64,000 nt of DNA, taken from positions 73,719 through 137,718 of IMG/VR virus record IMGVR_UViG_2757320370_000007. The stretch is one strand, 5' to 3'. Below are positions 1-37,726 of the stretch, in pieces. The DNA is from a virus. The position numbers and the translations under genes are program-made. Below the pieces are notes generated by a model, which ran no database searches, had not been told where the DNA came from, and saw nothing but the letters and a program-made list of their open reading frames with translations. The first letter of the stretch is position 1; the number at the start of each line of letters is the position of its first letter.

Positions 1-724
1 TGCGGTCAATTTCTTCTTGTGGATCTCCAAATCCAACTTCAACCAGTCTTTTCGTGACAATTTTTGTATTTACGATATCACCATAAACTTTAACTGTCTG
101 ACCCTTTTCATAAGTATCTTGAACATAATTAACAGACGTTGGATTTTGCACTACAAAATCAAAGGGGAAGATTTTCTTTGCGTCATCCTTTTGTTCTTGG
201 TAGTTAACAATAAATCCTTTTAGAATCAGTCTTCCAGTTTCTTCACCATTCCGCGTCTCCGCTTTAGATCCAGCAATTGCCAATTCAAGATTAAACTTAG
301 CTTGTGGCTCAAAAACTTCATCCGACTTAATGCGATTTACAAACTTTGCAGAAAGTTTGGGATACGATCTCCATTCGCCGTCCTGACCGACATATTCATT
401 CTTTCCAACTTTACCATTATCGAATTTGCCAGAAGTTTCAATGCGAACTTTATCAGCATTCTCAATACCATGTACATCAATTGTCTTGTATTCGTCACGA
501 ATAGTTACTAGTGTTTTAAAAAGACCACTTACTTCTTTCTTTTGGTTCATCTTAAATGAGAATACATTTACAGTGTGAATAGACTCAGGAGACACTTGAA
601 TATCAATTTCTCCCGAAATGGCGTCCTGCCCATTGATCGGTTTTTCTTCAATCCGAATATCTTTTACAATGCCTTCGATGTGAATTGTGTTAATGCCCTC
701 TTGTAGTGTTTTTTCGTTAGCCAT
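1..724 (-). CDS. Phage single-stranded DNA-binding protein, SPbeta YorF-like (runs off window edge; absent from ORF track)
   Basis: ATG at 724 behind GGAGAG RBS; manual translation MANEKTLQEGINTIHIEGIVKDIRIEE...GEIDIQVSPESIHTV...GEETGRLILKG, stop-free to base 1, resembles YorF. Confidence 0.75.
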   Translation of the reverse strand, partial: MANEKTLQEGINTIHIEGIVKDIRIEEKPINGQDAISGEIDIQVSPESIHTVNVFSFKMNQKKEVSGLFKTLVTIRDEYKTIDVHGIENADKVRIETSGKFDNGKVGKNEYVGQDGEWRSYPKLSAKFVNRIKSDEVFEPQAKFNLELAIAGSKAETRNGEETGRLILKGFIVNYQEQKDDAKKIFPFDFVVQNPTSVNYVQDTYEKGQTVKVYGDIVNTKIVTKRLVEVGFGDPQEEIDR

Positions 725-847
725 TTTAATTTATCTCTCCAATTATGTATTAGTTTAGTTTTTTTAAATAAGTTAATATGTTTAGTTTATTGGACACTGC
801 GACTCATTTCGGTGGACTTCGCATTAAAGAAATACTCTCACATCCTC

Positions 848-1786
848 TCAGAATCCGAATTTATTAACCTTATCGACTTTAGTTTCTTTTATATCATCAA
901 ATGGTGATCCATGAATCACATCCGATTCCAATTCTTCTGGCTTATATCTTCCCTGAACTAGCGAGGAAAGATTACCTCCAACAATCTCCAATTCTTTAAT
1001 TGATGATCCAGCAATAACTTCGTATCCATCATCAGATAAAGTCATTGGAACATAATTTCTTATGTTTCCATGGATCTTCAATGTGGAACCAACCTGAATA
1101 TTACTTTGAAAATATTCAACAAGCGCAACGGAACTTTTGTCTTTAATGTTAATCACAAACTTGTACGGGATGATGTCAAATCCATCAGAATTACGAATAA
1201 TCAATTTGGTATTTACATTATATTTACTAGAAATAACTTTTTTGATATCCATAAATACTATCTCTTGAGTGAAATAAGATTCGTTCAGTAGACTTGCTTC
1301 ATCTATAGAATATATCTCAGTGATGATGAAGCTTTCTTGTGTCTCGCCTTTATATTCATTGAATCTTAATGAACCCTTGATTAACACGCTTGATCCATCT
1401 TTTAAGTTGTCTCTCAGGTGCTCTGTTGCATCATAGGCTATTAACTTAATATCTTCTCTGTCTAGGCCATTGAGGTTAATTTTGACTGGTTGGAAGTACT
1501 TATAGCTCTTGTACTTGTGACTATATTTTTCATTCCAGTTAACCATGATATGATTATTCTTGTCATATCTCTTTGTCATTGGATCAACTTTAAACATTTT
1601 TATCTTGTCCGACTTATTCCCCATCATTTCAACATATACAAATGCATTACTGCTCACTCTCACGCCAAATTGTAGCCTGTTCCATTGTCCATTTTCTGTC
1701 TGTCCATCAGTGTAAGCCTTAGTATTAGATAGACCAGTAATGATTCCTTTGATTTCAAACTTACCGTATGTTGGTTGCAAACTCAT
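848..1786 (-). CDS. Double OB-fold SSB-like protein, probable paralog of the adjacent gene
   Basis: Similar layout (IKGII start; FQSNIQVGSTLKIHGNIRN vs YEKGQTVKVYGDIVN); acidic PFDD near C-terminus. Confidence 0.5.
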   Translation of the reverse strand: MSLQPTYGKFEIKGIITGLSNTKAYTDGQTENGQWNRLQFGVRVSSNAFVYVEMMGNKSDKIKMFKVDPMTKRYDKNNHIMVNWNEKYSHKYKSYKYFQPVKINLNGLDREDIKLIAYDATEHLRDNLKDGSSVLIKGSLRFNEYKGETQESFIITEIYSIDEASLLNESYFTQEIVFMDIKKVISSKYNVNTKLIIRNSDGFDIIPYKFVINIKDKSSVALVEYFQSNIQVGSTLKIHGNIRNYVPMTLSDDGYEVIAGSSIKELEIVGGNLSSLVQGRYKPEELESDVIHGSPFDDIKETKVDKVNKFGF

Positions 1787-1922
1787 TCACTAACCTACTT
1801 TATATGTATTAACTTTTAAAAACAAAAACTTCTTAATCACCACCTTCTATTGGAATATCTATAACCTCACTTACGTAAAGATATATATTCAACATGCTTT
1901 CGCATGGCGTTTTTAAAATCAA

Positions 1923-1995
1923 TGGGTCTCATCGGACTTGAACCGATATTATCTGATTTATGAGATCAGAGCCTTAACCATTAGACGAAAGACCC
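1923..1995 (-). tRNA. tRNA with CAU anticodon, probably Ile2 (lysidine type) rather than Met; CCA not encoded
   Basis: Cloverleaf GGGTCTT/GAGACCC acceptor, CTGAT-CTCATAA-ATCAG anticodon arm, ATCGG-TTCAAGT-CCGAT T arm; G1-C72 paired, so not initiator. Confidence 0.9.
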
Positions 1996-1999
1996 ATGA

Positions 2000-2917: not shown

Positions 2918-3292
2918 TTACAGCCTTCTAAATAATCCTAGGCAAGTCTTTATTACTTTCATCCTTTTATCAGCAATCGTTATCCTGTCATTTTCCTTGT
3001 CTTGCCCATAAATAAGTACGTTTAATTTACAATCTATTTCTGGATTCTTATTTAAATTTGCTATAATGCCTCTATCTGTTCTTATAAACCCCTCGTTTTT
3101 TTCTAGCAATCCATAAGACTTGTCGACAGAATTACAATCCCTATATTCTCCATTATCTGTTTTATATATCCTATAAGATCCCTCTCTTTTTGTGTATTCA
3201 GTACGAACATGCCTCAAATCTTTAATTTCTATCCATTCGGCTTCTTCTGCGAAGTCTTTTCCGTCCCACTTTAAAACCATTATAGATCTCAT
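2918..3292 (-). CDS. Stand-alone LytTR DNA-binding protein (no receiver domain)
   Basis: GFIRTDRGIIANLNK matches the LytTR F-x-R-x-HRS-x-x-VNL motif; start reassigned to ATG 3292 behind AAGGGAG. Confidence 0.75.
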   Translation of the reverse strand: MRSIMVLKWDGKDFAEEAEWIEIKDLRHVRTEYTKREGSYRIYKTDNGEYRDCNSVDKSYGLLEKNEGFIRTDRGIIANLNKNPEIDCKLNVLIYGQDKENDRITIADKRMKVIKTCLGLFRRL

Positions 3293-3319
3293 AAAATCTC
3301 CCTTCTTTATTATGAGAGT

Positions 3320-3352
3320 GCCGTGGATACTAAAACAAATGGCATCCACGGC
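3320..3352 (-). other. 11-bp stem-loop between agrD-like and LytTR genes (no U-tract)
   Basis: GCCGTGGATGC-N11-GTATCCACGGC on the minus strand. Confidence 0.7.
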
Positions 3353-3359
3353 CTAAAAC

Positions 3360-3485
3360 TTACATCATATCCGCTGGCACATCTTCCCCATGCAGGAATG
3401 TCCAGCTTGCAACAGAAACAGTCAGCAATACAATCATTGATAATCCCATTCCTACGAACTTCATATACTTGTGATTAATCTTCAT
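3360..3485 (-). CDS. agrD: AgrD-like cyclic lactone autoinducer precursor, 41 aa (absent from ORF track)
   Basis: MKINHKYMKFVGMGLSMIVLLTVSVASWTFLHGEDVPADMM; GGGAGGTGA RBS; leader, S-WTFL core and acidic/Pro tail; overlaps end of agrB. Confidence 0.85.
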   Translation of the reverse strand: MKINHKYMKFVGMGLSMIVLLTVSVASWTFLHGEDVPADMM

Positions 3486-4023
3486 CTCTTTTCACCTCCC
3501 TTAATGGAATATGAAACAGGAGGAGTGATTGTATAAAAATTGAAGTTGATATGATAATGTCGAATATCAGGATGCATATAATTATGATTGCTACTGATAT
3601 CACCTTAAAAATAAAGTGATTTTCTTTTTTAACTATTGTTTTACTTGCTATTTTTGATGGAGAATATATTAGACACATCATGATACTAACCAATAATATC
3701 ACTTTGTGATGGTCGTATAGCAAGTAACTATAATTAACTATAAGATAAATTAAAGATATTGATACTATCACACATATATCTGCATTTTTAATATGATATC
3801 CACCCGAGAATTGTCTCAATATTACAAATGGTATTGCTGCTTTTGCATATTCTAAATAATCTCCAGTAATCAAAGCGATTATAATTAGTGAAACAATAGG
3901 AATTATATTTGTGATAATAAATTTTACTGAATACTTAGTCTGAACAAACGATGGCATTTCATCTGGATAATCTCCAACAAGCCATTGGGCCATTTTTATA
4001 GAAAATGTATCAATCAATCTCAT
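3475..4023 (-). CDS. agrB: AgrB-family peptide-processing membrane protease
   Basis: LRQFSGGYH...C motif with catalytic His/Cys; multiple TM helices. Confidence 0.9.
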   Translation of the reverse strand: MRLIDTFSIKMAQWLVGDYPDEMPSFVQTKYSVKFIITNIIPIVSLIIIALITGDYLEYAKAAIPFVILRQFSGGYHIKNADICVIVSISLIYLIVNYSYLLYDHHKVILLVSIMMCLIYSPSKIASKTIVKKENHFIFKVISVAIIIICILIFDIIISTSIFIQSLLLFHIPLREVKRDED

Positions 4024-4663
4024 CTCTCTTTTCTTTCTTGGTCTCTAGTATAAAAATATTTATTAAGCACAAAATCCAGAAGATTATTTCTAGGATTACA
4101 TTATTAAAGTTATATATATTGATGAACATCAACATAACGCAAGCAGACGTAAGTAAGATCACATTGTTTATTTTGGTAAATTTAATTCGGTAGGTGTAAT
4201 CGTTAGGCAAGGTTGTGAAGTGTTTTTTGAGTTTTCTTAGCAACAAAGTTACAGATATCAATATTATTGCACTAATTATTTGTAAGGAAGGTCTCAAGAA
4301 ATCATTATTTTTAATTTCATTAAATCTAATATCGGTCACATACGATGTCACCATTATCAAAAATCCCTGAATTACTGCCTGCCCAACAAACCCCATCAAT
4401 GTTAATCTTAAAGACGAAAAAACCGATATTCTAAAATACAGTATCAATGATAAAAATAATATCGTTATACTAATCAATGGCTCATAATCTTTTAATGAGT
4501 CGTGAGTAGATATATAGTAATTTCCAATCGATATAACTAAAACGGTTAGTAATATCTCTCTCCAATAATTTCTTAATCTGACTTTGAATGATCCGAAGGC
4601 AAATATAAAAATTGATAAGCCATCAATCATCGAAAATAGTATGTATAACAAGGCACTTTCCAT
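4010..4663 (-). CDS. Polytopic membrane protein resembling an AgrC sensor domain, with no kinase domain
   Basis: About 6-7 hydrophobic segments in 217 aa; overlaps agrB start; no HisKA/HATPase motifs. Confidence 0.6.
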   Translation of the reverse strand: MESALLYILFSMIDGLSIFIFAFGSFKVRLRNYWREILLTVLVISIGNYYISTHDSLKDYEPLISITILFLSLILYFRISVFSSLRLTLMGFVGQAVIQGFLIMVTSYVTDIRFNEIKNNDFLRPSLQIISAIILISVTLLLRKLKKHFTTLPNDYTYRIKFTKINNVILLTSACVMLMFINIYNFNNVILEIIFWILCLINIFILETKKEKRDEID

Positions 4664-4784: not shown

Positions 4785-5780
4785 TCAACTTGTTCCCGCA
4801 GGGTATAGTCTGTTTATAGTTTTTAGGTTTAGACAGTCTTTAGATAACCTGTGTACTGAAAGTTCACCGTAATCAAACCTCCGGCACACCTCTAATATTT
4901 CTTGTCTTTCAAAAACTCCTCTCTCTTCATATAAGTCTTTTGCATATTTAACCATTCCAGACTTCCTAATGTTTAGAGGTACTAATTCCTTATAATCAAG
5001 CCACCTAGATATGTTTTTAATTTTTCGACTCACAAAATTTCTAGGAGCCACTCCAAAATAGGTTGTATTCATATCTGCTGACCTAAATATATACCCATTA
5101 CTCACCAAAGTTATGTCTCTTGATGATTTCATCTTCACCTGTAGATTTGCATTACTTTTTACGTAGATTGTTTGATTGGCTGCTCTTATCAATAATGTCA
5201 CTAATTTTTCCGATACTTTCAATTTTCTGATCGTTGTTTCTCCATCTGCATCTAAATTTTTTAAAGTGAGGATATTATTTTCTTGATCAATGTCCGCTAA
5301 TTGCAATCGAAGTATCTCTGAGTACTCCCTTCCCATCAAACCCTCGAATAATGCTAGAACTAACGCTCTATCTTGTTCGTTTGACAATCTCCCGATTATG
5401 TCATTTATTTGTTTTTCGGTATATAAAAATTCTAAACTAGAATCTATAAAACTGCTTATAAATTCTTCAGATAAACCCGCCCCTAATGGATTTATATTAT
5501 TATCCCTAAGATCATTTTTTATTGCCCATGTTATATATTTTTTCATTTGAGACAAGGCATCACGACTTGAGTTGTAAGTGGTGGGAGAAAGCAACTTCAT
5601 CACTTGCCCAATCTCATTTACGTTGAAATTATATAAGTCTCTCCCCAATTCTTCCTCTACATAAGCCGCTCTTAGTAAAATTCTTGAGTACACAATTTTA
5701 GTTGATTCCGACAATCCCTTTAAATACCGTTCTTTTTGTTCAGCGTTGAAGAATTCATTCCCGTATATATTGTTAGCCAA
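4785..5780 (-). CDS. yopR: Master lysogeny repressor MrpR/YopR(SroF)-like, tyrosine-recombinase fold
   Basis: FNAEQKERYL, ELGRDLYNF, RALVLALFEG, LVPLNIRKSG resemble YopR; no HxxR motif; likely TTG start 5780 behind GGGAG. Confidence 0.8.
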   Translation of the reverse strand: MANNIYGNEFFNAEQKERYLKGLSESTKIVYSRILLRAAYVEEELGRDLYNFNVNEIGQVMKLLSPTTYNSSRDALSQMKKYITWAIKNDLRDNNINPLGAGLSEEFISSFIDSSLEFLYTEKQINDIIGRLSNEQDRALVLALFEGLMGREYSEILRLQLADIDQENNILTLKNLDADGETTIRKLKVSEKLVTLLIRAANQTIYVKSNANLQVKMKSSRDITLVSNGYIFRSADMNTTYFGVAPRNFVSRKIKNISRWLDYKELVPLNIRKSGMVKYAKDLYEERGVFERQEILEVCRRFDYGELSVHRLSKDCLNLKTINRLYPAGTS

Positions 5781-7113
5781 CTGTAACACTCCCTTGAACA
5801 TATTTTTCAAAATATTCTATAACCATTTTTCTGAGAGGATTAGAATTTATTCCTCTTTTGCTCTTATCATTAAATATTTCAACCAGTTTTTCATCTTTAA
5901 AATTAATGTTTCCGATATACTCCTTAAGTTCTTTTAATGGTTTGTTGGTATCCTGAAAATGTTTTGCTATTACAGTATATCCCAAGAACATTAATGGATG
6001 GTTTATCAAGGTATTTGAATATTTGCGTGGGTCTAATATGAACTCATCTACATAGTATCCAAACAAGTACTTATAAAAGTTTATTAAATATTCAGATACT
6101 TCATCAACGTCTAATCCACTTTTTAGATTAAAAGAATGCTCTATCCCATATGACATTATATCGAATGTTGTTAATTGTCCTGTTATTTCGCTTATTTTGG
6201 GTGCGGAGGCGATCTTACCCTTTTTAAACTCAGACTTCGGATGCTGTTGTAGTTCTTTAACAACTAGATCTGAATTTTTCACAGATAATAACTCTTTTCT
6301 TCTCTCTATTTTAACCGGATTTATTGTATTTATTTGTCCAAAATACTTTTGTGCTTTCGGAGTGTCGTAAGATCTAATAGACAGTATCATATCTTGATTT
6401 AAATATTCATTCATTGTCATGGCTCTCGAACCACCCTCTAAACGGTGAAATCCATCTAATATTGAGACCACAGCTCCATCGTTAATTGTAAACAATCTTG
6501 TATTTTCATTGTAAGTAAATGGTTTTACCTCGTTCGAATAAACATTTAAAGTAATCATATCTTCAAGGTAATCATCGTTAGCCATTTCAGAAGCAATACT
6601 TTTAACACTATTTTTGTTTAGATACGGAGTTGGAACGACTCCATCTCTTTTCATTACGTATACGGCGCTTCTTTGAGTTTTATAATCATAAAAGATTAAC
6701 TGAGAATTAGACATCTGTACCAAAAATGACATTTTAACAGATGTTAAAAAACTATCTTCTCTTATTTTTTTCACATCTTCAATAACTATAGGGAGCATCA
6801 ATCTATTTTCAAAACCATAGACCTCTTTAATATTTTGGTGTGCCATTTCAATCTCATTTTCAGAAAACCAGCGTTCTGGAGACATGTCATCGTAACCAGT
6901 TACTTCATGTATTACTTCCGTGATGACGCACAGTAATGATTCACTGGCTGCCGATAATGCTTGATCTCCTTTCGATATATCTTCAAAGGTTCCCAATGGA
7001 ACACCTTTATCCTTCAATATACTATTTGTTTGATGGACCTTTTTTCTTGTTCCTTTTATTTCCCTAAAACGTTCTTGAATATGTCCCTCTAGTTCTTCTC
7101 TGTCTTTTTTCAT
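5773..7113 (-). CDS. yopQ: YopQ(SroE)-like protein with DGQHR/ParB-DndB-type domain
   Basis: ILDGFHRL motif; 446 aa; immediately upstream of and overlapping yopR, as in SPbeta. Confidence 0.75.
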   Translation of the reverse strand: MKKDREELEGHIQERFREIKGTRKKVHQTNSILKDKGVPLGTFEDISKGDQALSAASESLLCVITEVIHEVTGYDDMSPERWFSENEIEMAHQNIKEVYGFENRLMLPIVIEDVKKIREDSFLTSVKMSFLVQMSNSQLIFYDYKTQRSAVYVMKRDGVVPTPYLNKNSVKSIASEMANDDYLEDMITLNVYSNEVKPFTYNENTRLFTINDGAVVSILDGFHRLEGGSRAMTMNEYLNQDMILSIRSYDTPKAQKYFGQINTINPVKIERRKELLSVKNSDLVVKELQQHPKSEFKKGKIASAPKISEITGQLTTFDIMSYGIEHSFNLKSGLDVDEVSEYLINFYKYLFGYYVDEFILDPRKYSNTLINHPLMFLGYTVIAKHFQDTNKPLKELKEYIGNINFKDEKLVEIFNDKSKRGINSNPLRKMVIEYFEKYVQGSVTVG

Positions 7114-7172
7114 CGTTTACATACACCCCTCTGATTATTGAGTTATTGTAACATAGTTATAAAAATCTATTT

Positions 7173-7937
7173 TTAGCAAAAATATTTTAGAATATAATTT
7201 TGAGAAGTGCTTGTGTAAATATCGGCCAATACATCTTTGTCTGTTATTTTATTATCATTGATAATTTTCTGTCTTGCCGCCTTAAAACAAGATAAACAAA
7301 AGATATCAGTTCCTTCTTCTGGCGTAAATTGCCTAAAGCAGTTTTTCTCGACACATATCTTATCTTTAACTGCTACCGCCTTACCGTATGGCCTATATCC
7401 GGCCTTACGCATAGAATCTACCCAACTTAACCCCATCCCCCGGAGAACCTTCTGAGATGGCTTCAAGTTCATGATGTCGTATTCTTTACTTGTTGGTATA
7501 TACCCTAATTTTTTAATTGTTTGTTTTAGTTCTAAAATTGCGTTATCGTTTGTCGCGTATTGAGCATTTGCCATTTTAACATCTGCCACACAAACTATTT
7601 CTGACCATCCGTAGTGTTTGCATATATAGTCATAACTAGGTAGCAAGCTTGGTGTAGACGACTCATATAATACTTTAGACACTTCTCCATATTCTAGGGC
7701 TAATATCTTTAAATTACTGACTGCCTTAATTTTGTTTACGTTTATTAAATACTCTTCTTTATTAAGTACCCCACACAATTTTAAAAACTCAGGGAAAGTT
7801 ATATTTAACTTGTTTTTCAGGGTTTTCCATGCAGGAATATCTCCTCTATTTTTATCATACAGCTCAGTTGTTAAATATCCTCCAACTTTAGACGAGACTT
7901 CTTTTACTCTTTTTACCAACTCTTTATCAATAGTCAT
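7173..7937 (-). CDS. Protein with homing-endonuclease-associated repeats and C-terminal Zn finger
   Basis: Repeated units such as IKKLGYIPTSKEYD...SWVDSMRKAG; C-x4-C...CLSC. Confidence 0.55.
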   Translation of the reverse strand: MTIDKELVKRVKEVSSKVGGYLTTELYDKNRGDIPAWKTLKNKLNITFPEFLKLCGVLNKEEYLINVNKIKAVSNLKILALEYGEVSKVLYESSTPSLLPSYDYICKHYGWSEIVCVADVKMANAQYATNDNAILELKQTIKKLGYIPTSKEYDIMNLKPSQKVLRGMGLSWVDSMRKAGYRPYGKAVAVKDKICVEKNCFRQFTPEEGTDIFCLSCFKAARQKIINDNKITDKDVLADIYTSTSQNYILKYFC

Positions 7938-8426: not shown

Positions 8427-8662
8427 TCAATTATCACCTCCAATAGATAATTTACTTCATTAGATCTAAAAGTCAAGTGATAAATAAAACAAAAAAGACT
8501 CTTACATATAAATAATATCATATGTATTGAGCCTTTTATATATTTATTTGTCGATTTATGTAGTTTTTTTATTACATGTTGTTTTTATGTAGTTTTAAAA
8601 TATGCTTCAGACACACATCCAATTACAACTGTCAAAGCATTATCCCCTCACCTTTTACACTC

Positions 8663-8977
8663 TTATTCAGTTGTTAGATGAATAACATTATCTTTAATGG
8701 TCATCTCACTAACAAATTCGACATCGCTTATACTCAGACCTCTTCCTCCAAGTAGTCTTTCGCCTACTGCGACCTTTAAATGATATGTGCTGTCTTCTGT
8801 AAGTTCCTGTTGGCAACGATACTTAGACTGCCACACATAGCGTTGTTTATCTTGCTCAAAAACATAGGTATGTAGATTCGCTGGGCGAAAGTATCTGTCC
8901 GTATAATCCACACCGTAACTTACTTCGATTAATTTCCCGATGATGTCAGTCTTGTTGTTATCCATATCGACCACCAT
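8663..8977 (-). CDS. Hypothetical protein
   Basis: ORF track; AAGGATGG RBS-like. Confidence 0.55.
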   Translation of the reverse strand: MVVDMDNNKTDIIGKLIEVSYGVDYTDRYFRPANLHTYVFEQDKQRYVWQSKYRCQQELTEDSTYHLKVAVGERLLGGRGLSISDVEFVSEMTIKDNVIHLTTE

Positions 8978-9472: not shown

Positions 9473-9682
9473 ATGCCTTGGGTTGAAATCACACTAGATA
9501 AAATACTAATCACAAAGAATATGACCAGGAGAGAGTTGTCTAGAAGAACAAAAATCAGACACTCGACAATTAATGAGTTATGCAATAATACCGCAAAACA
9601 AATACCATTGAAGAATATTACTTTAATATGTGATGAATTAGAAATTGAGGTCGGGGAATTATTTAAATTTCATAAAGGATAG
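9473..9682 (+). CDS. Cro/C1-type HTH regulator (YopO/YopS-like)
   Basis: LSRRTKIRHSTINELCNN...ICDELEIEVGELF XRE pattern; AAGGGAG RBS. Confidence 0.85.
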   Translation: MPWVEITLDKILITKNMTRRELSRRTKIRHSTINELCNNTAKQIPLKNITLICDELEIEVGELFKFHKG

Positions 9683-9738: not shown

Positions 9739-10146
9739 TTATGTTCTCGAAAATGTTCTGGTGGTGCTAATTATTAATGCCCTTTCCAACTCTCGTTCAT
9801 ATCTTTTTGGCATGTCCGTTATTTTGTGTATTAACAAACTCTTGTCGATAGTAAAGTGTTGTTCAAACAACACCACACTGTCTTTGTGAAAACCAATTTC
9901 ATTTGCCTTCATATAAACGTGAGTGGGCAATTTTGCTTTTGTCATGCTGCTGGTGATTGGGCAAACCACCACGAAATTTGAGTGTAAATTGCTTCTATCG
10001 TTTGATATAACTATTGACGGTCTAACTCCTCTTTGTACTGATCCTTTTGATTCGCCTAAGTCTGCCAAAAAAATGTCAAATTGTTTAGTTACAATACTTT
10101 CTGCTCTTTCCATCACCATACTCATAATATCCACTCTCCGATTCAT
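9739..10146 (-). CDS. mazF: MazF/PemK endoribonuclease (EndoA/NdoA-like); alternative start 10125
   Basis: DIFLADL-GS.Q.GVRP-VISND-CPITS-KAKLPTHV-DSVVLFEQ-TIDK aligns with B. subtilis EndoA, including catalytic Arg and Thr. Confidence 0.92.
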   Translation of the reverse strand: MNRRVDIMSMVMERAESIVTKQFDIFLADLGESKGSVQRGVRPSIVISNDRSNLHSNFVVVCPITSSMTKAKLPTHVYMKANEIGFHKDSVVLFEQHFTIDKSLLIHKITDMPKRYERELERALIISTTRTFSRT

Positions 10147-10247
10147 TGATTTAATTTATTTATATTCTCTCTATTCGTTATGTACCTTCAATTCTATGTA
10201 CTTCTTCTTTAATATTCTATGTTTTAGTATTACTTATTTATATGTTT

Positions 10248-10276
10248 ATTATACATGTGCAATTAGATTATTGCAA
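10248..10276 (-). promoter_or_regulatory. SigA promoter of mazF
   Basis: TTGCAA-17-TATAAT. Confidence 0.75.
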
Positions 10277-10339
10277 CACTTATATTTACTATATACACTG
10301 ATTTGTCAATAGTATTTCTAAGGTACAAAACTTTCTCGT

Positions 10340-11760: not shown

Positions 11761-14700
11761 TCAAAATGCTTGTTTATGAAACTTTATGTACAAAATATTA
11801 TCTTTAATTATGGCAGAAGTATACCCTTTATTATCCTTAGAGTCTTGGTACTTCACTATCTCCTGGGCCATCTCCGTTGTCATCTCGCCTTTATAAATAT
11901 GGAATGTCTACAATTGATCTAATCGGGATCTCGCAGCTTTTACAATTGATATCAACGCGCTCTAAGATAGTCTTAACTGGATCACTTAGATACTGCCAAT
12001 CATTCTCTATCTTTTTCACCGATTAATCTCCTTTTCCTCAATTACTGATTTCAATATGTGAATATTCTCAATCGTTTCGTCAATGTCGCTTTGTTTAGAG
12101 GGATAACTTTCAGATATGTAGTAAGCCCCAAGATCTTTTGTGTGAATGTTTACCATCTTATTCAGCCCATGCTGCGAGATTTTTCTTAAATCATTCTTGT
12201 GATAAATCCCCACATTCGTCCCTCCATTCTCCCTATAAAACTTGCATTTAAAACTTGCATTTCCTCTTCTTATATGTATCCAGAATTTAACTTCTTTTAA
12301 GAATATTCCCAACAACTTTTAAGTTTTCATCTTGCACAAGATAGGTCACTAATTCGCACCAAACATCTCTCCGTTCACCAACCTCAACTCCATATGTGTT
12401 ATTAACCTCATCCCACAGAACAACCGCTTCTACCCTGCTATCGCCCCTTAGAACGTCTCCTAGCCTAATATAGTCGCTATTAAGTACAACACCTGTATTA
12501 TGCTCCACTTTTCATCTCCCTCACGCTATTTAGATAAAAGATGCCATTTATTTTCTATACTATCTCATTATGTCAACGTTTTTGCATATTCCTCCACAAC
12601 ATTTCTATCCCTATTCTCGCAGAGCCAAATACCGCTATCTTTTTTATCTGTTATGTAATAAACATCGCCAAGTGTCCAATGTAGAATTTGATATCCATTG
12701 ACAATACTCACATTACTATGCATTTTTCAACTCCAGCCTCTCATACACTATTCAATAGCCTTTATCGAAATCAGGCATATTGTCATACGTCCTGTCTAAC
12801 TCTTTTTTCAAAAACTCCAAACCCTCCGTTGTCAAATATCCAACCAACTGAGGCGTTAAGTCACATAAGAATTGATTGCATTCGTTATATCCCGCAATAC
12901 CGCCCTCTGAATAGCTGCGATTTAGTCGCATAACACAATGATCCTGTAACTTTTGTTTCTTGGTTTTCTTCACTTTGCAAACCCTCTTTCATATGCCATA
13001 TCCGTCTGCTTCGCTTTCCACTTCGTACTGTGTATTAGCCTACTACTAATCAATTGGTGAGGTTAACATAGTAAGCAACTGCATCTCCGTCACTATCAAC
13101 AAACTCCACCTTAGCCGAATCAGCGTCAACAGATTCCCCGCCATTCCAAAAAGCATCAGTTAAGCAGTTTGCTGCGGCGAACTTCTCTATTGCTTCCTCC
13201 ATAGATTCAGCGAAGGCCGTACCAGCAAATAAGCTGTTCTCAAAATGTGTAAATCTATACCTTTTCATGAATTATCCCTCCAAATTAAATAAGTAACGTC
13301 TAACATTTTGGTGCGCCGTATGCGTCTACTGCGTTTTTAATAAAACCATTCCTTTTACAGTGTTATTTGATGCCGTTTTCCAATTCTAAAGAATCCAAAA
13401 TAGCATTCATCAATCTAACTTGACTCACTGGGTGATCCCATGTTTGACCTACTCTTTTACCTTCTGAATCCCTATATTCCATTTTTAGATACCTCGTATC
13501 TTCAACAGTATCCTCCTTTGCCCAAATTTCAAGCCCATTTTCTGTTTCTCCTGTATGCAACCATCCGTTTACTTTTTTCATTATTAATCACCTTCCACAT
13601 TCTGATTCACAATCCATAATCCCTGAACATCTTCAGCAATCACTTTTAACTGCTCCAGAGCTGCGCACATGGCTCCCCAACGTGTCACCGCCTCTTCCTC
13701 TATGGTTCCGCTTTCTCCGCTTGTGGTACGATATTCTAACGTGTGTTTGACCATTTCCACTCATCCCTCTCTTCTTGATTCGGTATAATTTTGCCTAATA
13801 GCATCTTGAATTATTTGCTCTATATCATCTGAAGTGCCTTCACTATTAGACAGTTTATCAGCGACAAGAAGAAAGTGTTCCTCTTGTATATTAAAGCCGT
13901 TGTCTTCAAACCATTTAATAACTTCTTGTTCAATTCGATTGGCTCGATTTCTTAATTCCATAATTTCATCGATCTTAGCCCTTTGAAGATCTGGTAATTT
14001 GAATATATTCTTCACTTCATCTTCAATTGGTTTTAAATCATTTATATTGACCTTTCCATTACGCCTAGTGTCTACGAATAGAACCCCTGCCTTCGAGTGG
14101 AGAGATGAGTTCTAATAAGATACATCTTCTCCCATTATTTCTCGTGTTATTGGGACTGTCTATTACATAGGTGTATCCCACTTTAATATCTGTTTGCTCT
14201 ATATTAATCACCCCACATAATCAAATAGCCATTTCATAGTTAACTTAAAGTTTATTTGAGTAATTTCTCGGCAATGAAACTTGCAGTAATCAAAATCTCT
14301 TGTCTCAGTTCTTCATATATCCTCGCATGACGCTTTAGCGCAACTTCATCATCAAAATCGCAATTTTTCATGTATTCGTTAGCACCGTAATCTCTAAATA
14401 CCAATTTATCGTTTTGATATTTATTTAAGAGTTCTAATAAAGTCATATCATTCATTTCTTTTTCTATAGACAAGGACAGCCACCTCATTTAAAGTTGTTG
14501 ATGATCAAACAGTCATTTGACTGAGAAACCAGCCTTAATTATTGCTCGACGATGTTTCTCAGGTCTCTTGCCATCATCATCAATATTCGCTTTAATTCTT
14601 CCTCGTCTTTTGTTGACTGCTCTGTTAGAATTCTTGTGAATTCAGCAACCTTAACCTCTATTTCTACTTTTTTGAGTATTTCCTTCTCGCGCAACAATTC

Positions 14701-18765: not shown

Positions 18766-18852
18766 TTAATATGTATATTCATCAAATAGGTAAAAATAAG
18801 AGCGATCATTTGAATAATTGCTTCGGTTTGGTGTTGTTATAAAATTGACATT

Positions 18853-19586: not shown

Positions 19587-19617
19587 ACTATGTATTGTGT
19601 TCCTCTTATTATTTACT

Positions 19618-21202: not shown

Positions 21203-21264
21203 TTCACTAAGCGCCACTTCTTTAGTATTTAAATTGTTGTAAAAGACGGGTTTTATCAGATCAC

Positions 21265-22125: not shown

Positions 22126-25100
22126 TTACTCTTCTTCAATAAAATTCCCTTCGTTATCATATTCTTCAACATCGATACTATCAATAAAAACGTCTTTAAA
22201 GAACTTAATATCATCTTTATTCAGAACAATCATTAATGCCTCATCTTCCACTTTAACATAAACTCTTTCTTCATCTTTATTAAAATCATATCCCGCGATG
22301 CCCTCTAAACTATCCAAAGTACCAGGATGAGCAAACAGAATCAATTCATTCTCTGACCAACAATATGTGAGAAGCTCCAGTTCGTCAGCGGTGATATCAT
22401 AATGAGAATCGACATACCCTATTTGCTTGGGTAGTAGTTTTTTACCCTCGGTGTTGATAAGGTTCATTTTATCCTGAATAAATTGGATGTTCATTTTTAT
22501 TCCTCCCGTTATATGTATGAATTAATTGTACTACACTTTTATACGCTGGGCCGTAAAACAAGAATTTTATCAATTGTTGATCATTTGCAGACTATTGCTA
22601 GTAATAAAAGCTTTAACTTCTGAAACACCCCAAACTTCTTTTGTCCAATCTTTTATTCCACTTACAATATTCTCTACCCTATTAAACTCAACTGAAATTC
22701 CTTCTTCAATGAGTTTATCAAGGCATGAAGAATGTCTATATATCTCCATTTGATAAAATTCTTTATGCTCATCTTCGATAAATAGACCTTTTTTCCCTAA
22801 AAAGCAGAGTTTGATTTTTTTCTGCTCTAGTTCTGATAATACATTTTCAAAATTCACAATAATCTTTTTATTTTTCATTTCATATTCCTCCGTGTTCTAG
22901 TGAAATCACTCGTTTAATCTAATTTATCTATGTTGTACGTTACGGTTATTTGAAACGTGCAAAAGCTCCCATTAGACTAAACAGATCGTCATGATTATCA
23001 TATCTCAAAGTACATCCACCTGCATTAATTGACACTTTTCCATTTTTAAGAAAAGTAATTACAAAACTAGAAAATCGTCCAGTAGTATATTTTTTCTTTC
23101 CTTTAATTTTATTACTGACGATATCTACAGTATGAGAATTTAGGCTATCTAAAAAATGTCTGTACATTTCTATTTGACTCATCATTTTTCATTCCTCCAT
23201 TTTATCCTAGTTTTCAATTGTTTCTATTTTTACCGTACCCTTAGATAAAAACGAATCTGTTAAGATGAACTTACCATTCATATCAAAAAATTCATTGTTT
23301 CCATCTTCCGATCTGAGAAATGTCGCCACTTTAGAAAATGAACCGTAGTTGATCAGATAAATGTTTCCATTTTCCATTCTATTTGCCTCCTATGTATTAT
23401 CCTATAAATACATTTTACACTACTCACAATATATATTAAATAGTTTTATATATGTTTACGTTATAAAATATGGTTTTTATCGGGTTAAATAATCGGTTTA
23501 ATCTTCAGCCAGTAGTTTCCGTTTAAATAAATATCTATTGTTCCATCTTCGTTGAACTTAGTATCTTTGGCTTTAGGAATATCAAGCCACGAATCTCTTC
23601 CGTTAACAAGTGTTGTTATCGCATTGGTTTGAACCTTGTTGATTTCTCTTATTTGGCCTCCTGCCATTTCGGGCTTCATTGTATTTTCAATGAACTGAAT
23701 TTCCTTGCCTTTCTCCAGCCACTTTTTGAATTGAGACATATTTTTAATTGTCATTATAATTTCCCCTTTTCATTTATTGTTTTGTTGATACGTGTTAAAT
23801 ACTGAAATACCGTTTCAACAAAACATTTTTCAGAATTGAATCGTTCAACATTAGACCGTTCGTAAAATTCCCCGATTACAAAACCATCTTTGCGACTTAC
23901 AACCCAGGAACCAGAATAACGATTAAGTTCAGGTATATGTATTTTTTCAGACATTAACCGATCCTCCAATGTAGTTCATTCCATTATGGCAAGTCAACCA
24001 TTACCCAACCTTCATTATCATATCCTTGATAAACAACATATTCTTCATTCTCTTCTGTTACCATTAGGTCAACTCCAGTCCCATCTTCGTCATAGGCTGA
24101 AAAGTAAGCTCTATCCTCATCGGCCTCTGCTGCTTCGATTCCTGTCCAATATCCAGTGCTAATCAGAAAGTTCATAACCTTATGTTTATTCATTATTTTT
24201 ACCCTCCTTAATATTTTCTTTCTGAAATCCGGTTTTTATTTTATTTATTTATGCTTCGATTACATTTCTTTCATCTGCCATGGCCCATTTAAAATATGCT
24301 TTATCTCTTGCTTCTTCAATGTCCCCTGCCCAGATCCCATGCCTTTTTGCTGTTCCACTATTTGTAACATCTACATGAAAGTATTTTTGTTTTTGTTCTG
24401 TTTCGGTTTTTGTGGCTTCATTCGGTGTCAAACACCCGTTAAGAAGCGAATATTCAATATGTTGTTTTATCATATCAATATTTTTATCTATCAGGATTTC
24501 TGTATTCTTTATTGCAGAATGTTTATCTACACTGTTATGAATAAAAGCAAGACCAGTTTTAACTAATGATGTATTAAACGTTCCATCTTCATTTTGGTGA
24601 GTAAAACATTCAATTCCGTTATATTGAAACCCTTCTCCATCCACTTTTAAAAATCCATGTTTCTTAGTTGCAATATAAAATTCCATATTTATTCCTCCTA
24701 TTACTTTCTTGATGAAATTATCATTTCACGTTGTCTTGATTAGACTTAAATTTACTGCGTCTGTCTGCTGCATATTCTTTTTTGAAAGTCTTCATAAACC
24801 ATGTGTTAAAACCTCTTAGATTTGCAAATGATTCATCATATGCTTTCTTTGCTTCTTTCCATTCAGGCATAGCTCTTACATGGTCTGGAGTCATTCCCAA
24901 AGCGTTCTTGCCATATTTATTAAATCCTTTCAATACATCGGAACAGGCGTTTGTTTGTTTTTGAAGTTTTTGTCCATTTGCTTTTGCTTCTTCGTAGATC
25001 ATATGTATTACCTCCCTAATTTAGATTAGCCTTCTACTTTAATAACAATATCAATCATCTCGTCCAGATCATCAACCAGTTTCTCATTCACTTTAATTTC

Positions 25101-25250
25101 ATCCTTATATATTTCAATTGTGCAATTATTAGTGTAGATCGAGCAGGTTGGAGAAATTGTAAATGTTTGTTCATCTCCAGATACTTCATGTTTAATGTTG
25201 TTTGAGCTAAGTGTACGAGTTACAGAGTTAACTAATTTCTGGATTGTCAT
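22126..25250 (-). CDS. Second array of small early hypothetical genes (22126-22494, 22570-22878, 22946-23185, 23207-23377, 23485-23754, 23754-23969, 23984-24193, 24249-24686, 24721-25002, 25026-25250)
   Basis: Co-oriented ORFs, mostly with GGAGG RBS; 23207-23377 read manually. Confidence 0.7.
23412..23463 (-). promoter_or_regulatory. SigA early promoter with upstream repeat motif
   Basis: TTTAAT-17-TAAAAT; TAACGTAAACATATAT at 23448-23463. Confidence 0.6.
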
Positions 25251-25280
25251 ATGTATTCACCTCTTATTTGGAATAACTAA

Positions 25281-28404: not shown

Positions 28405-28475
28405 TCCCTTGCCCTCCAATAAAAAGGAACCAGTGTAACAAATAACTGATTCCAATATGTATTTATATATTTACT

Positions 28476-30755
28476 TTATGCTGACTTTTGATTATATCCG
28501 CAATACTCATTTGCAAATTTAGCTGCAACTTGATTTGAAGTAAATTCAATTTCCATTTTTCCGTTTTTTAAGAATTTAATTGATGTAACTTTATTAAGTG
28601 ATTGCGTCTCATACTTTTCAAAATTTGAAACTTTTTTCTCATTGTCATAACCACAATATTTGGCTAATAGTTCTTTATTCATTTTCACAGACCCATTATC
28701 AAAATGAGATAGAGCATTAAAAATGAACTCTTTGTTATTTGTAAGTCTATATTCTTTCCAAATTGAATCATGGCGAACAAAGTAGCCATCTAAAATTAGT
28801 TTATTGTTACGGATAATTATTTTTTTGTCGTTATATTTGAAAATATCTATAACCTTTGTTTTTATTTCTTTTTCGGCCTTCTCTACAAAATTATACCCAT
28901 CTAATTGTATTGTTATTTCATCGATAATGTTTTCATAAGTGACTTTTATATCATATTTTCTTTCAATTTTCTCAACATTACTAATTGTAATATTATATTT
29001 ATTCATAAAATAGTGACAGATAATTGAAATGAATCTATCTTTAATTTTAGTGATATTTCCATCTAAATCATATGAACTAAATCCAGCGTCAAAACTTGTT
29101 CTTCTAGGATATTTTGTGCTATTTGTTCCCACTTCTTCTGAATATTTTTCTCCATGTGCAATAATTTGCAGTTTAATCGCTTGTAGCTGCTCGGTAAGAT
29201 TATCATATGCTGCTATTGTTTGTTTATAGATTGCTTCTTGATCTTTACAGAATTCCAGATCCTCGTCAGATATTTTTTGATCTGCTGAGATTTCAATGTT
29301 ATCAAATTTAGTAAAGATATCATCAAATGAATTAAAATCAGTATGTTCATTAACCGTATTATTATTTTCCATTGTATCACCTTCCTGTTTTTGTTCTTCT
29401 GTTACTCCCTCAGTTTGACTAAATTCATAATAGATTACATTATCGTTCTGGCCGCCTGTGCTTGCCTCTGTGACTTCTTCGACCATAGTATTAGTATTTG
29501 TATCTTCTTCATCAATAACACCGTGAGAAGGTGTTACAAGTGACTGAGCAAATGCAAGGCGTTCTGCTGTCTGTTTGGCCCACCACTTACCACTATAAGA
29601 AGACCAACGAAAACCATTTTCTTTTAATGACTCAATAAATACCAGAGAAGGTTTCTTTGCAAAGGTTAATTCAATTCCGTTTTTCTCCTCATTGATAGCC
29701 ATAGTTACTTCATTTGAAGCCTCTACGGTTTCGCCTGTTACTGTTTCTTCATTTACAGTTACAACTTCAGGTGTTTCAATTGCTGGAGCATTAGAAACGG
29801 TTTGTTTGCGTGCTGTTTTCCTGAATACAGTTTTTTCTATATATTCAGTAACTTCAACAAATTCAATTACGGCAATGTGACCTTTACTTAGCATTTCGTT
29901 CAACTTTGAAAATGAAGTACTCCACATTTTATCATAGCTTTTAGATGGTTTATTATTTTTACCCAATTTAGAAAACAAACCATTCTCCATACAAGTATAT
30001 TTATTCCCTTTTCTTTTTCCGTAGGTATAACCAACCTTCATTACAAAAGTAAATCCTTCTTTGATATCTGATTCTGTGATTTCTGATACTTCTTTTTCTA
30101 CAATTTGAACAGTAGTAACTGGGACTTTGATAATTTCAGGCTTCAGGGCATCGGCATCAGTCAAAGCTTTTTCAATACGGTTAATCAATGCAGCCAATTT
30201 TTCAGCTTTTTGTTGTTTTTCTGTCTTTTCTTTATTTTCCCAATCATAATCATTAACTGCAAATGCCCCGTTTCCTTTCGCAATGATTTGGCCATCTTTT
30301 TCAATATGCCAGCTTGTGCCTTTTGGATTAGCAAAACTAAAAGTTGGAAAAGTATCAATTACTGTATATTCTGGTTCAACTCCTAATTTATCTTGTTCTT
30401 TTTGAATTAATACAGCACATGATTCTTTTTCGTTATCAGTGCTTGCTGCATCGTTCATCATTGCAGTTAACTTTACAATTCTTTCGTTAGAAACGGATCT
30501 TTTGTTGTTGTAATTATACTCACGTACTTCTTTACCGGAATAAGAAAGATGATACTTGCAAATATCCACCAAGAGAGTATATCCGTTTTTAGTAGCGATT
30601 CCATCCCAATCCGAAGGGCTGAAATAATCAGTCATAGAATCTGATTCATCGGCCTTATAACCATAGATCTTCCAGCCTTTTTCAACCAGTGCAGACATGA
30701 TCATGACTTTCGCTTCGCGTTTTGAGTAGTAATCCATTTGTAAAACCTCCATCAA
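28476..30755 (-). CDS. Large polyvalent-type phage protein
   Basis: NEEKNGIELTFAKKPS...LKENGFRWS..SGKWWAK module typical of polyvalent proteins; acidic linkers. Confidence 0.55.
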   Translation of the reverse strand: MMEVLQMDYYSKREAKVMIMSALVEKGWKIYGYKADESDSMTDYFSPSDWDGIATKNGYTLLVDICKYHLSYSGKEVREYNYNNKRSVSNERIVKLTAMMNDAASTDNEKESCAVLIQKEQDKLGVEPEYTVIDTFPTFSFANPKGTSWHIEKDGQIIAKGNGAFAVNDYDWENKEKTEKQQKAEKLAALINRIEKALTDADALKPEIIKVPVTTVQIVEKEVSEITESDIKEGFTFVMKVGYTYGKRKGNKYTCMENGLFSKLGKNNKPSKSYDKMWSTSFSKLNEMLSKGHIAVIEFVEVTEYIEKTVFRKTARKQTVSNAPAIETPEVVTVNEETVTGETVEASNEVTMAINEEKNGIELTFAKKPSLVFIESLKENGFRWSSYSGKWWAKQTAERLAFAQSLVTPSHGVIDEEDTNTNTMVEEVTEASTGGQNDNVIYYEFSQTEGVTEEQKQEGDTMENNNTVNEHTDFNSFDDIFTKFDNIEISADQKISDEDLEFCKDQEAIYKQTIAAYDNLTEQLQAIKLQIIAHGEKYSEEVGTNSTKYPRRTSFDAGFSSYDLDGNITKIKDRFISIICHYFMNKYNITISNVEKIERKYDIKVTYENIIDEITIQLDGYNFVEKAEKEIKTKVIDIFKYNDKKIIIRNNKLILDGYFVRHDSIWKEYRLTNNKEFIFNALSHFDNGSVKMNKELLAKYCGYDNEKKVSNFEKYETQSLNKVTSIKFLKNGKMEIEFTSNQVAAKFANEYCGYNQKSA

Positions 30756-30789
30756 TATGTAGTTGTTATTTCGCTACTTCTTATTCATA

Positions 30790-30999: not shown

Positions 31000-31737
31000 T
31001 CAGGACACCAGATATTTGAATTCATCAGTAAATTGAACACCCATTTCCCAAAATTTAATGTATTCTTCCATCTGTCCTTCAAATGCTGCCTTAACTGATG
31101 CATATTCATTGAACCAATCAGCTTCAGGATTCCAAGTAATTTGTTTTACCACAAACATTTTGAGCAATAAGAGTGTATTCTTGTTTGCTTCCTTCATAAA
31201 AGAAAACACGGACAGTTGGAGCAATTAAATCATAAGAGGTGATAACTGGAGACCCATCATTTGCAGAATACAAAGTCTGAGATATGCCAAAAACCCCAAA
31301 TTCTCCATTGTGAATAACATTCAAACCTTCCATGATAATTCCTCCTGGAATATGTATTTAACTTCTTAAATCAATTATAAGCGATACGGTTATTCATTAC
31401 AACAGTAATTTATATGTTTATTATATAATTATATATTTCCAACTAATCAAGCAACCGTATGGATATCAACATTATCGCCATCATGGACAATACGGTCAAT
31501 TGTGCAACATGTGGTTAATTCGGTGATATCCTGATTCGTTCCTGATATGCGGAAGATTACAAGGCCAGATTTACGGATGAGACGGATATATCGGATTGAC
31601 ATTTTAGTAGTCTCCTTTATTAGTGATTTGAATAGGTGGAACTATCTTAAGATTAGAACACCGATGATATATTTATCCTTTAAGGATTGTTTGCGATCCC
31701 ATTTGGATTTCAATACTGCTAATTGTGCTTGTGACAT
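31000..31737 (-). CDS. Four small hypothetical genes (31000-31224, 31124-31333, 31447-31602, 31642-31737)
   Basis: Last two read manually behind GGAG/GGAGG RBS (51 aa and 31 aa). Confidence 0.55.
31374..31425 (-). promoter_or_regulatory. SigA early promoter with upstream repeat motif
   Basis: TTGTAA-17-TATAAT; TATAATAAACATATAA at 31410-31425. Confidence 0.7.
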
Positions 31738-36256: not shown

Positions 36257-36259
36257 ATA

Positions 36260-36920
36260 TATTTATCTTCTCCTCTGGTTTCAATTCTAAGTAAAATTTT
36301 CTTAAACATTTATAACAATTTCAAACTTTAGATGCTTAGTTGGAACAAATACATGTCCAGACTATAGACATCTTATTTATACATAAACAATAAGAGAAAA
36401 CTTGATATAACGTTCAAGAGCTTTTGAACTTGAACTTATCTCTTTAATTCCACACAATCGGATACGATACTCACCAAAATAACACCATCAATTTCAAACT
36501 CAAATTCACACATAAATTATAATGAAATTTCAACATGCCATTTCCGACCAACAACTATTCGGATTCAATCAGTGACTCCAAAATCATAAACAATAATAAA
36601 AGGAATCAGAGTTTAAAATTGATATGGGAATAATAAGTAAGATACAAGCATCCACAACGAAGATAATATTCAAAAATAGATATCAAAAATTCAAAATTCA
36701 AAACTTGCGTAGCGGACAATTTCCGAAGAGTTGGGAGCTACGCGACCATGGCTCTAAATACTGAGTCTATATATCTATATATCTATTATCTATATAATAT
36801 CTTTATACGTACCCGTTTATGCAGCATAAAACAACCAAGCGTCTGGTAATTTACGAACAGCATCTGGTAATTTCCGACCCGACTTCCTGCAAAAAACGGT
36901 TGTAGGTGAAAATGGCCTAA
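36260..36920. other. Non-coding region with iteron-like repeats (candidate origin)
   Basis: TCTGGTAATTT(A/C)CGA at 36842 and 36863 (21-bp period); TATATCTA-type tract 36768-36800. Confidence 0.5.
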
Positions 36921-36923
36921 TTT

Positions 36924-37592
36924 CTACACAGATAATTCATATTCCTCAAGTTTGTTATAATTCACATAATAATGGTTGTTGTATTTTGTAAATTCGAGTT
37001 CATCATTGTCATTGTATTGGTTATTATGACCAATTTTATGTGCAACTACATGAAGTAATTTTTCTTTCTTGAGTATATCTACATATTCTTTTACGGTAGT
37101 CTTGCCCAGTCCTGTGTCACGACATATCGTAATTACTGCTGAGTAGCAAAATTGATTTTGAACGATGCTCCTATTAATATAACTTTCAAAATAATACAAC
37201 AATCTAACTCCGGTATGACCAATCGTTCCAACTCTGCTCAAAATAGATAGTGGTAGTTGAGTATATTCTTTTTTTGGCGTAGCAAATTTCTTAAGATCAA
37301 GAGATATCAAGCTTGGAGTTGATCTCTCAATTTTAACAAAGTTATTTATGTATCCCCACTTATGTAGATTGGCGAGATGCTTCTTTAGTGTCCGGTTATC
37401 CGATATCTCCATTTTCATTCTAAGTTTAGGGATATCGATATAAATTTCACCACTTCCCCTATTCTCATAAATCAGATATTTAAGCCTTAGTAAAAGTGAG
37501 AATTCAACACTACCTATTTCACGGTCCCTTATAATTGCGTTAGACATCTGTATTACTGATTTATTAATTTTATGTTTATTCTTGTTCATCAT
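36924..37592 (-). CDS. Tandem winged-HTH protein, possible replication initiator
   Basis: Two helix-turn-helix-like segments (RTLKKHLANLHKWGYI; ICRDTGLGKTTVKEYVDILKKEKLL). Confidence 0.6.
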   Translation of the reverse strand: MMNKNKHKINKSVIQMSNAIIRDREIGSVEFSLLLRLKYLIYENRGSGEIYIDIPKLRMKMEISDNRTLKKHLANLHKWGYINNFVKIERSTPSLISLDLKKFATPKKEYTQLPLSILSRVGTIGHTGVRLLYYFESYINRSIVQNQFCYSAVITICRDTGLGKTTVKEYVDILKKEKLLHVVAHKIGHNNQYNDNDELEFTKYNNHYYVNYNKLEEYELSV

Positions 37593-37726
37593 ATGTTTCC
37601 TTTATATGTATAATTATTTTTTCATATACTAATTACCCCACATTTAGTGCGCGCAATTCATCGCCCATACTCTATTTCGCTTAAACATCATCCTTTCTGG
37701 CATTAACTTCAGTTCGATGAATTCAC

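Follow-up and report, generated by a model that had tools for sequence, protein, structure and literature searches.

UACAUA words beside the Shine-Dalgarno sequences of an SPbeta-like Paenibacillus prophage as candidate MazF-family cleavage sites

The window analysed here, 64,000 nucleotides of viral DNA (positions 73,719 to 137,718 of the IMG/VR record IMGVR_UViG_2757320370_000007), is part of a 175-kb island that is an SPbeta-like prophage of a Paenibacillus host and contains an agr-type cassette within its lysogeny module. The leaders of its genes are enriched for the exact hexamer UACAUA (TACATA in the DNA), the word cut by the endoribonuclease MazF, known in Bacillus subtilis as EndoA. 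With a probability of about 0.7, these leader words would be cleavage sites of MazF-family nucleases that make the lytic mRNAs conditionally unstable or untranslatable, while the repressor genes are spared.

EndoA/MazF of B. subtilis cuts only U^ACAUA and spares UACAU when the next base is C, G or U (Taggart 2025, PMC11780869; 10.64898/2026.08.06.743204). This specificity is common to the MazF of Listeria and S. aureus, and a single UACAUA put into a 5' untranslated region (UTR) lowers a GFP reporter on MazF induction (PMC11780869; 10.64898/2026.08.06.743204). The preliminary description of this DNA relied on the UACAU pentamer of 2011, and the later refinement to a hexamer sharpens the leader enrichment. 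Its 13 minus-strand and six plus-strand sites all exist, with the correction that the one placed at 45684 starts at 45685, and the base following TACAT is A at 19 of 19 (Table 1).

Enrichment, placement and spread of the hexamer

Genes were called by a heuristic combining open reading frames (ORFs), codon bias and Shine-Dalgarno (SD) sequences, which gave 91 genes for the window and 278 for the whole island. Leaders were defined as positions -40 to +3 on the sense strand, and expectations were taken from dinucleotide-preserving shuffles. Counted on both strands of the entire window, TACAT occurs 211 times against 204 expected and is not enriched; the signal emerges only once strand and transcript context are considered. 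The window leaders contain TACAT 16 times against 5.7 expected, a count matched by none of 2000 shuffles, so the leader enrichment proposed in the preliminary description is present. The hexamer itself is found 13 times against 2.27 expected (shuffle maximum 8) and once in antisense. In the island leaders, 33 of the 40 TACAT copies (14.7 expected) continue with A, whereas C, G and T together account for seven. At 33 copies against 5.4 expected (z=12), TACATA is the third most over-represented hexamer of these leaders, with only SD words ahead of it, and its antisense form TATGTA occurs three times. Among the intergenic copies of the island, 71 lie in sense orientation upstream of a gene and 16 in other orientations, transcription of the sites being deduced from gene orientation and predicted promoters.

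Seven SPbeta-like phages were pooled for comparison: this prophage, phi3T, SPbeta, and the Paenibacillaceae relatives G279, G110, G051 and G292. Being related, the phages are only partly independent samples; together they provide 1587 leaders, in which TACATA occurs 132 times against 26.1 expected (z=21). None of its 18 one-letter variants exceeds 1.9 times the expectation in the same leaders. Only the exact word is enriched to such a degree, which fits an exact-match nuclease better than a degenerate protein-binding site. The leader enrichment is present in phi3T (15 vs 2.2), in SPbeta (11 vs 2.4) and in the four Paenibacillaceae relatives (26 vs 4.7, 12 vs 3.2, 12 vs 3.7, and 23 vs 4.6), whose test protein is 49-62% identical.

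The coding regions are enriched as well. In the island, 128 sense copies stand against 50 expected from codon-order shuffles, whereas antisense copies are at expectation (59 vs 59). Minus-strand early genes and plus-strand late genes are each enriched on their own sense strand. The corresponding sense counts are 107 against 35 in phi3T and 112 against 39 in SPbeta. The two- to threefold coding enrichment is spread roughly evenly over the three reading frames, and the coding sites have the same preference for two A residues 5' of the hexamer as the leader sites, which indicates a nucleic-acid rather than a peptide signal.

The pattern is reversed in lytic B. subtilis phages. In SPO1 (loci L073-L079), codon shuffles predict 35 sense copies but only four are present, with 67 in antisense, and AR9 has 21 sense copies against 52 expected (loci L085-L092). 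Thus the hexamer is selected in opposite directions, being enriched in temperate SPbeta-like phages and avoided in lytic ones, as is expected of a word read by a host nuclease. The avoidance by SPO1 and AR9 suggests evasion of MazF. The leaders of SPP1 and phi105 are not enriched, nor are those of the host chromosome (13 vs 7.6; 10 vs 8.0), and host coding sequences hold 0.10 sense against 0.24 antisense copies per kb. Chance or the composition of AT-rich leaders might be suspected from the unremarkable whole-window count of TACAT and the A/T-richness of the leaders. The shuffles and controls refute this explanation, to which we give practically no weight: the shuffles never reach the observed count, antisense copies are at expectation, the variants are not enriched, and neither AT-rich AR9 nor the host shows the excess.

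The position of the word relative to the SD was determined in the seven phages as a rate, corrected for the amount of non-coding sequence available at each distance. Between -150 and -30, the baseline is about 2 per 1000 positions, where composition alone predicts about 0.5. The rate rises to 8.5 per 1000 at -24 to -22, where the end of the hexamer touches the SD, is near zero within the SD, and reaches about 4.4 per 1000 at -6 in the spacer before the AUG, with more cases of the form TACATATG at -5. The earlier statement that sites lie next to the ribosome-binding site (RBS) or between it and the start codon is therefore borne out. This prophage, G110 and G279 have a strong SD-abutting hot spot, with 18, 15 and 8 sites, respectively. 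Site frequency in the seven phages does not differ consistently between the first gene of a unit and internal genes. Placement of the sites for the removal of terminator hairpins was considered and rejected, since only six TACATA lie within 30 nt upstream of the 231 terminator-like hairpins of the seven phages, which is under the non-coding baseline; the copies at 58754 and 63769 nonetheless lie directly 5' of hairpins.

The preliminary description had placed the sites in most lytic operons. Just 10 of the 45 early-gene leaders of the window (22%) have one, and "many" is the fitting word. Many of the leader sites do lie downstream of operator-marked promoters, as had been claimed for early promoters, and for roughly one in two early promoters with an operator the first gene's leader contains a site. 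On the repressor side, the gene of the MrpR homologue is free of sites in seven of seven phages and that of YopQ in six of seven. Together these genes contain two sites, where the site densities of the individual phages predict 13.6 (P=1.3e-4). They lack the enrichment of the family rather than being strongly purged.

Candidate nucleases and competing explanations

Two MazF-family proteins are encoded. The host MazF (genome position 99,798-100,121) is ~90% identical to B. subtilis EndoA. The phage paralogue of 128 aa belongs to the PemK/MazF family, and its gene is an orphan that adjoins the lysogeny module, with a promoter region and a terminator of its own and no antitoxin gene upstream. Homologues of the phage protein occur in four of four Paenibacillaceae relatives and were not found in SPbeta, phi3T, SPO1, SPP1, phi105 or AR9. 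A small ORF of the prophage outside the window, with an AbrB/MazE fold predicted from a Pfam match, is a candidate for a phage antitoxin or a modulator of MazF.

In the proposed mechanism, selection would keep U^ACAUA in lytic transcripts, most densely at the 5' edge of the SD and in the SD-AUG spacer. Under high MazF activity the lytic mRNAs would be cut by the host EndoA orthologue, the phage paralogue, or both. A cut in the spacer would part the SD from the AUG and would have to abolish initiation. A cut beside the SD would strip the message of its 5' UTR and give it a 5'-OH end at the SD, from which trimming and decay might follow, and cuts in coding regions would fragment the message, so that lytic expression would fall. 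The genes for MrpR/SroF, the YopQ-like protein and gene 7173-7937, being site-free, would be spared, and lysogeny would be favoured or kept. Cleavage itself, the nuclease responsible and the lowered expression are what we infer from the observed distribution of the word. The host enzyme is sufficient for the family-wide signal, and the stronger hot spot of the Paenibacillus clade may be due to the phage paralogue.

A tentative alternative, which we consider possible but doubtful, is that the sites serve mainly the phage MazF. Cuts by the SD would then shut off or process early and middle mRNAs in the manner of RegB, and the sites in the leader of the nuclease gene itself would provide negative feedback. 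The orphan gene with its own promoter and terminator beside the lysogeny module would suit this role, as would the distribution of its homologues, since the SD hot spot is strongest in the clade that has them. TACATA upstream of the phage mazF is found here and in G279 and G110, and the RNA-contact block KAKLPTHV, R25 and T48 are conserved in the protein. In contrast, SPbeta and phi3T are equally enriched without a phage MazF, so the host enzyme suffices, and G051 and G292 have a phage MazF yet a weak hot spot. Moreover, the residue corresponding to E20, which is important for activity in other MazFs, is V in the phage protein (GSVQRGVRP). A comparable E-to-I variant PemK is encoded elsewhere in the host genome (3,236,989-3,237,291). 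A related and still more speculative proposal is that the circuit was rebuilt in the Paenibacillus clade, with an agr-type signal controlling a phage MazF that cuts UACAUA at or in lytic RBSs and in its own leader, in place of the arbitrium-host MazF pair. If true, this would be a phage-owned, RegB-like, sequence-addressed translation switch deciding between lysis and lysogeny.

Several observations weigh against MazF-dependent silencing of the lytic messages. The majority of hot-spot sites are located 5' of the SD, where a cut would preserve both SD and AUG. An mRNA of Bacillus can be stabilised by an SD near its 5' end, and cleavage 5' of the SD could therefore mature or stabilise the message rather than silence it. 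The change of E20 to V in the phage MazF also counts against the proposal, and the specificities ascribed to the phage and host enzymes are predicted from homology. Only three of the five Paenibacillaceae phages have a strong hot spot; it is weak in the other two, G292 and G051, and also in phi3T and SPbeta. According to ViennaRNA, the leader hexamers have an unpaired probability of 0.51, the same as control positions in leaders. The absence of sites from repressor leaders, claimed earlier, is true for all ten leaders of the lysogeny module, but ten are too few for a contrast class (Fisher p=0.61). Measured against a neutral expectation of ~5.6, the two sites of the MrpR and YopQ genes represent a weak depletion (P=0.08). 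In addition, the gene starts are heuristic. Finally, A is favoured at positions -1 and -2 of the hexamer, outside the published motif, and a longer word may possibly be recognised.

This last feature leads to the suggestion that (A)ATACATA by the SD is read by a factor other than MazF, such as another RNase or a phage regulator that represses or enhances translation, and that the match to MazF is coincidental or secondary. The extra A-A preference, the sharp position relative to the SD and the preservation of the SD by a cut at that position would be accommodated by such a factor. On the other hand, the need for the exact hexamer and the enrichment of the word in coding regions in all frames speak against it, and the sense depletion in SPO1 and AR9 together with the bias of the host coding sequences points to a host factor that cuts the word. 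We know of no candidate binding protein for this word and regard the suggestion as improbable.

At the DNA level, the word TTATAAAGTAAACATATATA is repeated upstream of sigma-A-type -35/-10 boxes, and the island holds ~20 copies. The MrpR homologue probably binds this word, which would make it the counterpart of SPBRE in SPbeta. Three variants of the operator read TAAACATATACATAT and hence contain TACATA (island positions -66522 and -10633, window position 9051); the TACATA at 9038 falls within an operator variant that precedes a promoter. A second repeated word, the promoter-like YGTAAAA-N8-TTTATCA, often stands right before an SD and may be a phage-specific promoter of middle or late genes. 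The hexamers TTTATC, TTATCA and TTTTAT rank near the top in leader enrichment. The possibility that TACATA belongs to a longer late motif was considered and dropped, the TTTATCA word being ahead of two sites only. TACATA might accordingly be supposed to act on DNA, as an operator of the TTATAAAGTAAACATATATA kind or as part of a promoter, with its presence in leaders a by-product. The operator shares ACATAT with it, the three variants contain it, and two late sites follow the TTTATCA word by 6 nt. However, a DNA-level function accounts for only ~5 of the 87 intergenic sites. The sites track the SD and the start codon rather than the -35/-10 boxes, lying ~17-25 nt past predicted transcription start sites, and many are intercistronic with no promoter nearby. 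The coding enrichment and the strand specificity do not suit a DNA-binding site either, and the explanation is very unlikely.

The prophage, its lysogeny module and the listed features

The island extends over window coordinates of about -74,000 to +101,500 and has 34.6% GC, within a genome of 8.54 Mb and 49.7% GC. A prophage of ~175 kb with this composition in a ~50% GC host represents an unusually wide gap for a resident prophage, and the four Paenibacillaceae relatives likewise form low-GC islands, each 150 kb or longer, in ~50% GC hosts. The closest relatives identified by protein search are prophages of Paenibacillus and related genera, and megablast against the phage collection found no close DNA relatives.

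The MrpR/SroF homologue and the YopQ-like gene are linked by tblastn to phi3T and SPbeta. The agr-type region (2918-4663, minus strand) adjoins the MrpR repressor and also holds a 217-aa gene; AgrB homologues are found in the relatives G279 and G110 too. No arbitrium genes were seen in the lysogeny module, in which no search aimed at AimR/AimP was made.

Three sense copies of the hexamer occur near the gene at 8426, at 8521, 8557 and 8586. They lie 100-165 nt upstream of that gene, before its promoter, and are thus outside its leader. The copies form direct repeats, (A)ACTACATAAA / AATACATA, within 70 nt, and the last is inside the terminator hairpin of the preceding gene. The cluster could be a MazF decoy or sensor, or a small RNA.

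Table 1. UACAUA sites and neighbouring features of the prophage (window coordinates unless stated otherwise; negative offsets are relative to the start codon).
Feature	Position	Strand	Remarks
UACAUA	744-749	minus	-25, immediately 5' of SD; gene starting at 724
UACAUA	1803-1808	minus	-22, leader of SSB/OB-fold-like gene 848-1786
UACAUA	14762-14767	minus	-31, leader of gene 14539-14736
UACAUA	18770-18775	minus	-37, leader of gene 18523-18738
UACAUA	19589-19594	minus	-23, 5' UTR of gene 19317-19571, downstream of operator and TTGACT-17-TATTAT promoter
UACAUA	22512-22517	minus	-23, leader of gene 22126-22494
UACAUA	23391-23396	minus	-19, abuts AGGAGG of gene 23207-23377; operator-marked promoter upstream
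UACAUA	25002-25007	minus	within the SD-start codon spacer (TACATATG) of gene 24721-25002; cleavage here would part SD from AUG
UACAUA	25250-25255	minus	spacer between SD and start codon (TACATATG), gene 25026-25250, first behind operator-marked promoter
UACAUA	28456-28461	minus	intercistronic, between stop of 753-aa gene and ATG at 28404 (57 nt away); hairpin and T-run downstream
UACAUA	30756-30761	minus	-24, leader of 753-aa gene 28476-30737; operator and TTGACT-17-TATTAT promoter upstream
UACAUA	31351-31356	minus	-23, leader of gene 31124-31333; operator-marked promoter upstream
UACAUA	37605-37610	minus	-21, leader of gene 36924-37589
UACAUA	42539-42544	plus	late intergenic; 6 nt past putative phage promoter word CGTAAAA-N8-TTTATCA
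UACAUA	44061-44066	plus	late intergenic; 97 nt before gene 44158-44331
UACAUA	45663-45668	plus	late, -54 to gene 45717-46076; first of two
UACAUA	45685-45690	plus	late, -32, leader of gene 45717-46076
UACAUA	58754-58759	plus	late, 3' UTR, 4 nt ahead of terminator hairpin
UACAUA	63769-63774	plus	late; 6 nt past TTTATCA promoter-like word, 4 nt before hairpin, 47 nt upstream of gene at 63816
Three sense UACAUA (8521, 8557, 8586)	8521-8591	minus	3' UTR and terminator of gene 8663-8965
Two UACAUA upstream of phage mazF	10179-10184, 10195-10200	minus	in upstream leader region 10126-10330
Phage MazF/PemK paralogue	9739-10125	minus	128 aa; ~45% identical to EndoA
agr-type cassette	2918-4023	minus	AgrB 3475-4023; weak sub-threshold LytTR-like match 2918-3349; leaders without UACAUA
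MrpR/SroF homologue	4785-5810	minus	Pfam MrpR_N_CB E=9e-26, MrpR_C_cat E=2e-15
YopQ-like gene	5773-7113	minus	weak DndB-family match
Repressor core (MrpR/SroF, YopQ-like, gene 7173-7937)	4785-7937	minus	3.15 kb without sense UACAUA
Cro/C1-type HTH gene	9473-9682
MazE_antitoxin (SpoVT/AbrB) ORF, small	-12634 to -12503 (G000:C1:4084922-4085053)	minus	Pfam, 28.7 bits
TTATAAAGTAAACATATATA, examples in window	19662, 23458, 25327, 30836, 31420, 31823	minus	operator-like repeat
TTATAAAGTAAACATATATA, example in window	39022	plus	operator-like repeat
YGTAAAA-N8-TTTATCA	42511-42532, 63741-63762, 21237-21258, 22551-22572	plus	promoter-like word
YGTAAAA-N8-TTTATCA	-29604, -36066, -50833, -66495 (island)	minus	promoter-like word

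Significance and comparison with known systems

The link between MazF and lysogeny in the SPbeta family has so far been described loosely, as the degradation of site-rich lytic transcripts. The present analysis adds the exact six-base word, its opposite selection according to lifestyle, and RBS-flanking spots that are defined to the single nucleotide in several phages. The arrangement is also found outside Bacillus and arbitrium systems, in Paenibacillus prophages that have a MazF of their own and an agr cassette, and the leader sites are concrete, mutable positions for work on mechanism. The counts further suggest that toxin-site words could tell phages that exploit a host toxin from those that evade it.

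RegB of phage T4 cuts GGAG in the SDs of early mRNAs. By analogy, the two systems may be likened in having an endoribonuclease site at the ribosome-binding region of many early genes and a phage nuclease available. The nuclease families are unrelated, however, and the arrangement described here is not of the RegB type: its motif lies beside the SD and not inside it, and the phage nuclease is a member of the PemK/MazF family. Moreover, T4 is virulent and its switch is from early to middle expression.

The SPBRE/MrpR operators of SPbeta (Kohm 2023, PMC10516654) resemble the present system in the repeated word before early promoters and in the MrpR homologue. The operator is a DNA element 5' of the -35 box, whereas TACATA lies in the transcribed leader. 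The work on U^ACAUA specificity (PMC11780869; 10.64898/2026.08.06.743204) deals with transcripts of the host, whereas the prophage has the motif under positive selection, placed by the SD and preferentially preceded by A-A.

The closest comparison is the MazF system of phi3T and SPbeta. UACAU is enriched in the ORFs of both phages and has been proposed to sensitise phage RNA to MazF (Guler preprint, 10.1101/2023.04.27.537455). MazF is said to degrade most phage mRNAs with the exception of the sroF operon (10.1101/2025.11.27.690993), and the same model is drawn in a review. The gating of lytic expression by MazF proposed in the preliminary description is essentially this published model, and the statistics agree with it; that translation is the step gated is something we infer, a cut 5' of the SD leaving SD and AUG in place. 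The arbitrium logic cited there is not simply transferable to a phage that has an agr-type cassette, encodes its own MazF paralogue and showed no arbitrium genes in its lysogeny module, where no search aimed at AimR was made. Relative to the texts consulted, among them the Guler preprint, the need for the exact hexamer in phage, the SD-flanking hot spots, the Paenibacillus clade with agr and MazF, and the avoidance by SPO1 and AR9 are new; the published Guler 2024 may mention leader placement. The published analysis of phi3T and SPbeta counted UACAU per ORF. The likeness to that system (Guler 2024; Zamora-Caballero 2024, PMC10769878) consists of the phage family, MrpR/SroF, YopQ and an EndoA-type host MazF, with phage transcripts rich in MazF sites and repressor genes not, and the hexamer excess is reproduced in both phages. 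In contrast, the prophage described here has a Paenibacillus host, an agr-type cassette, and an orphan phage MazF that is absent from phi3T and SPbeta.

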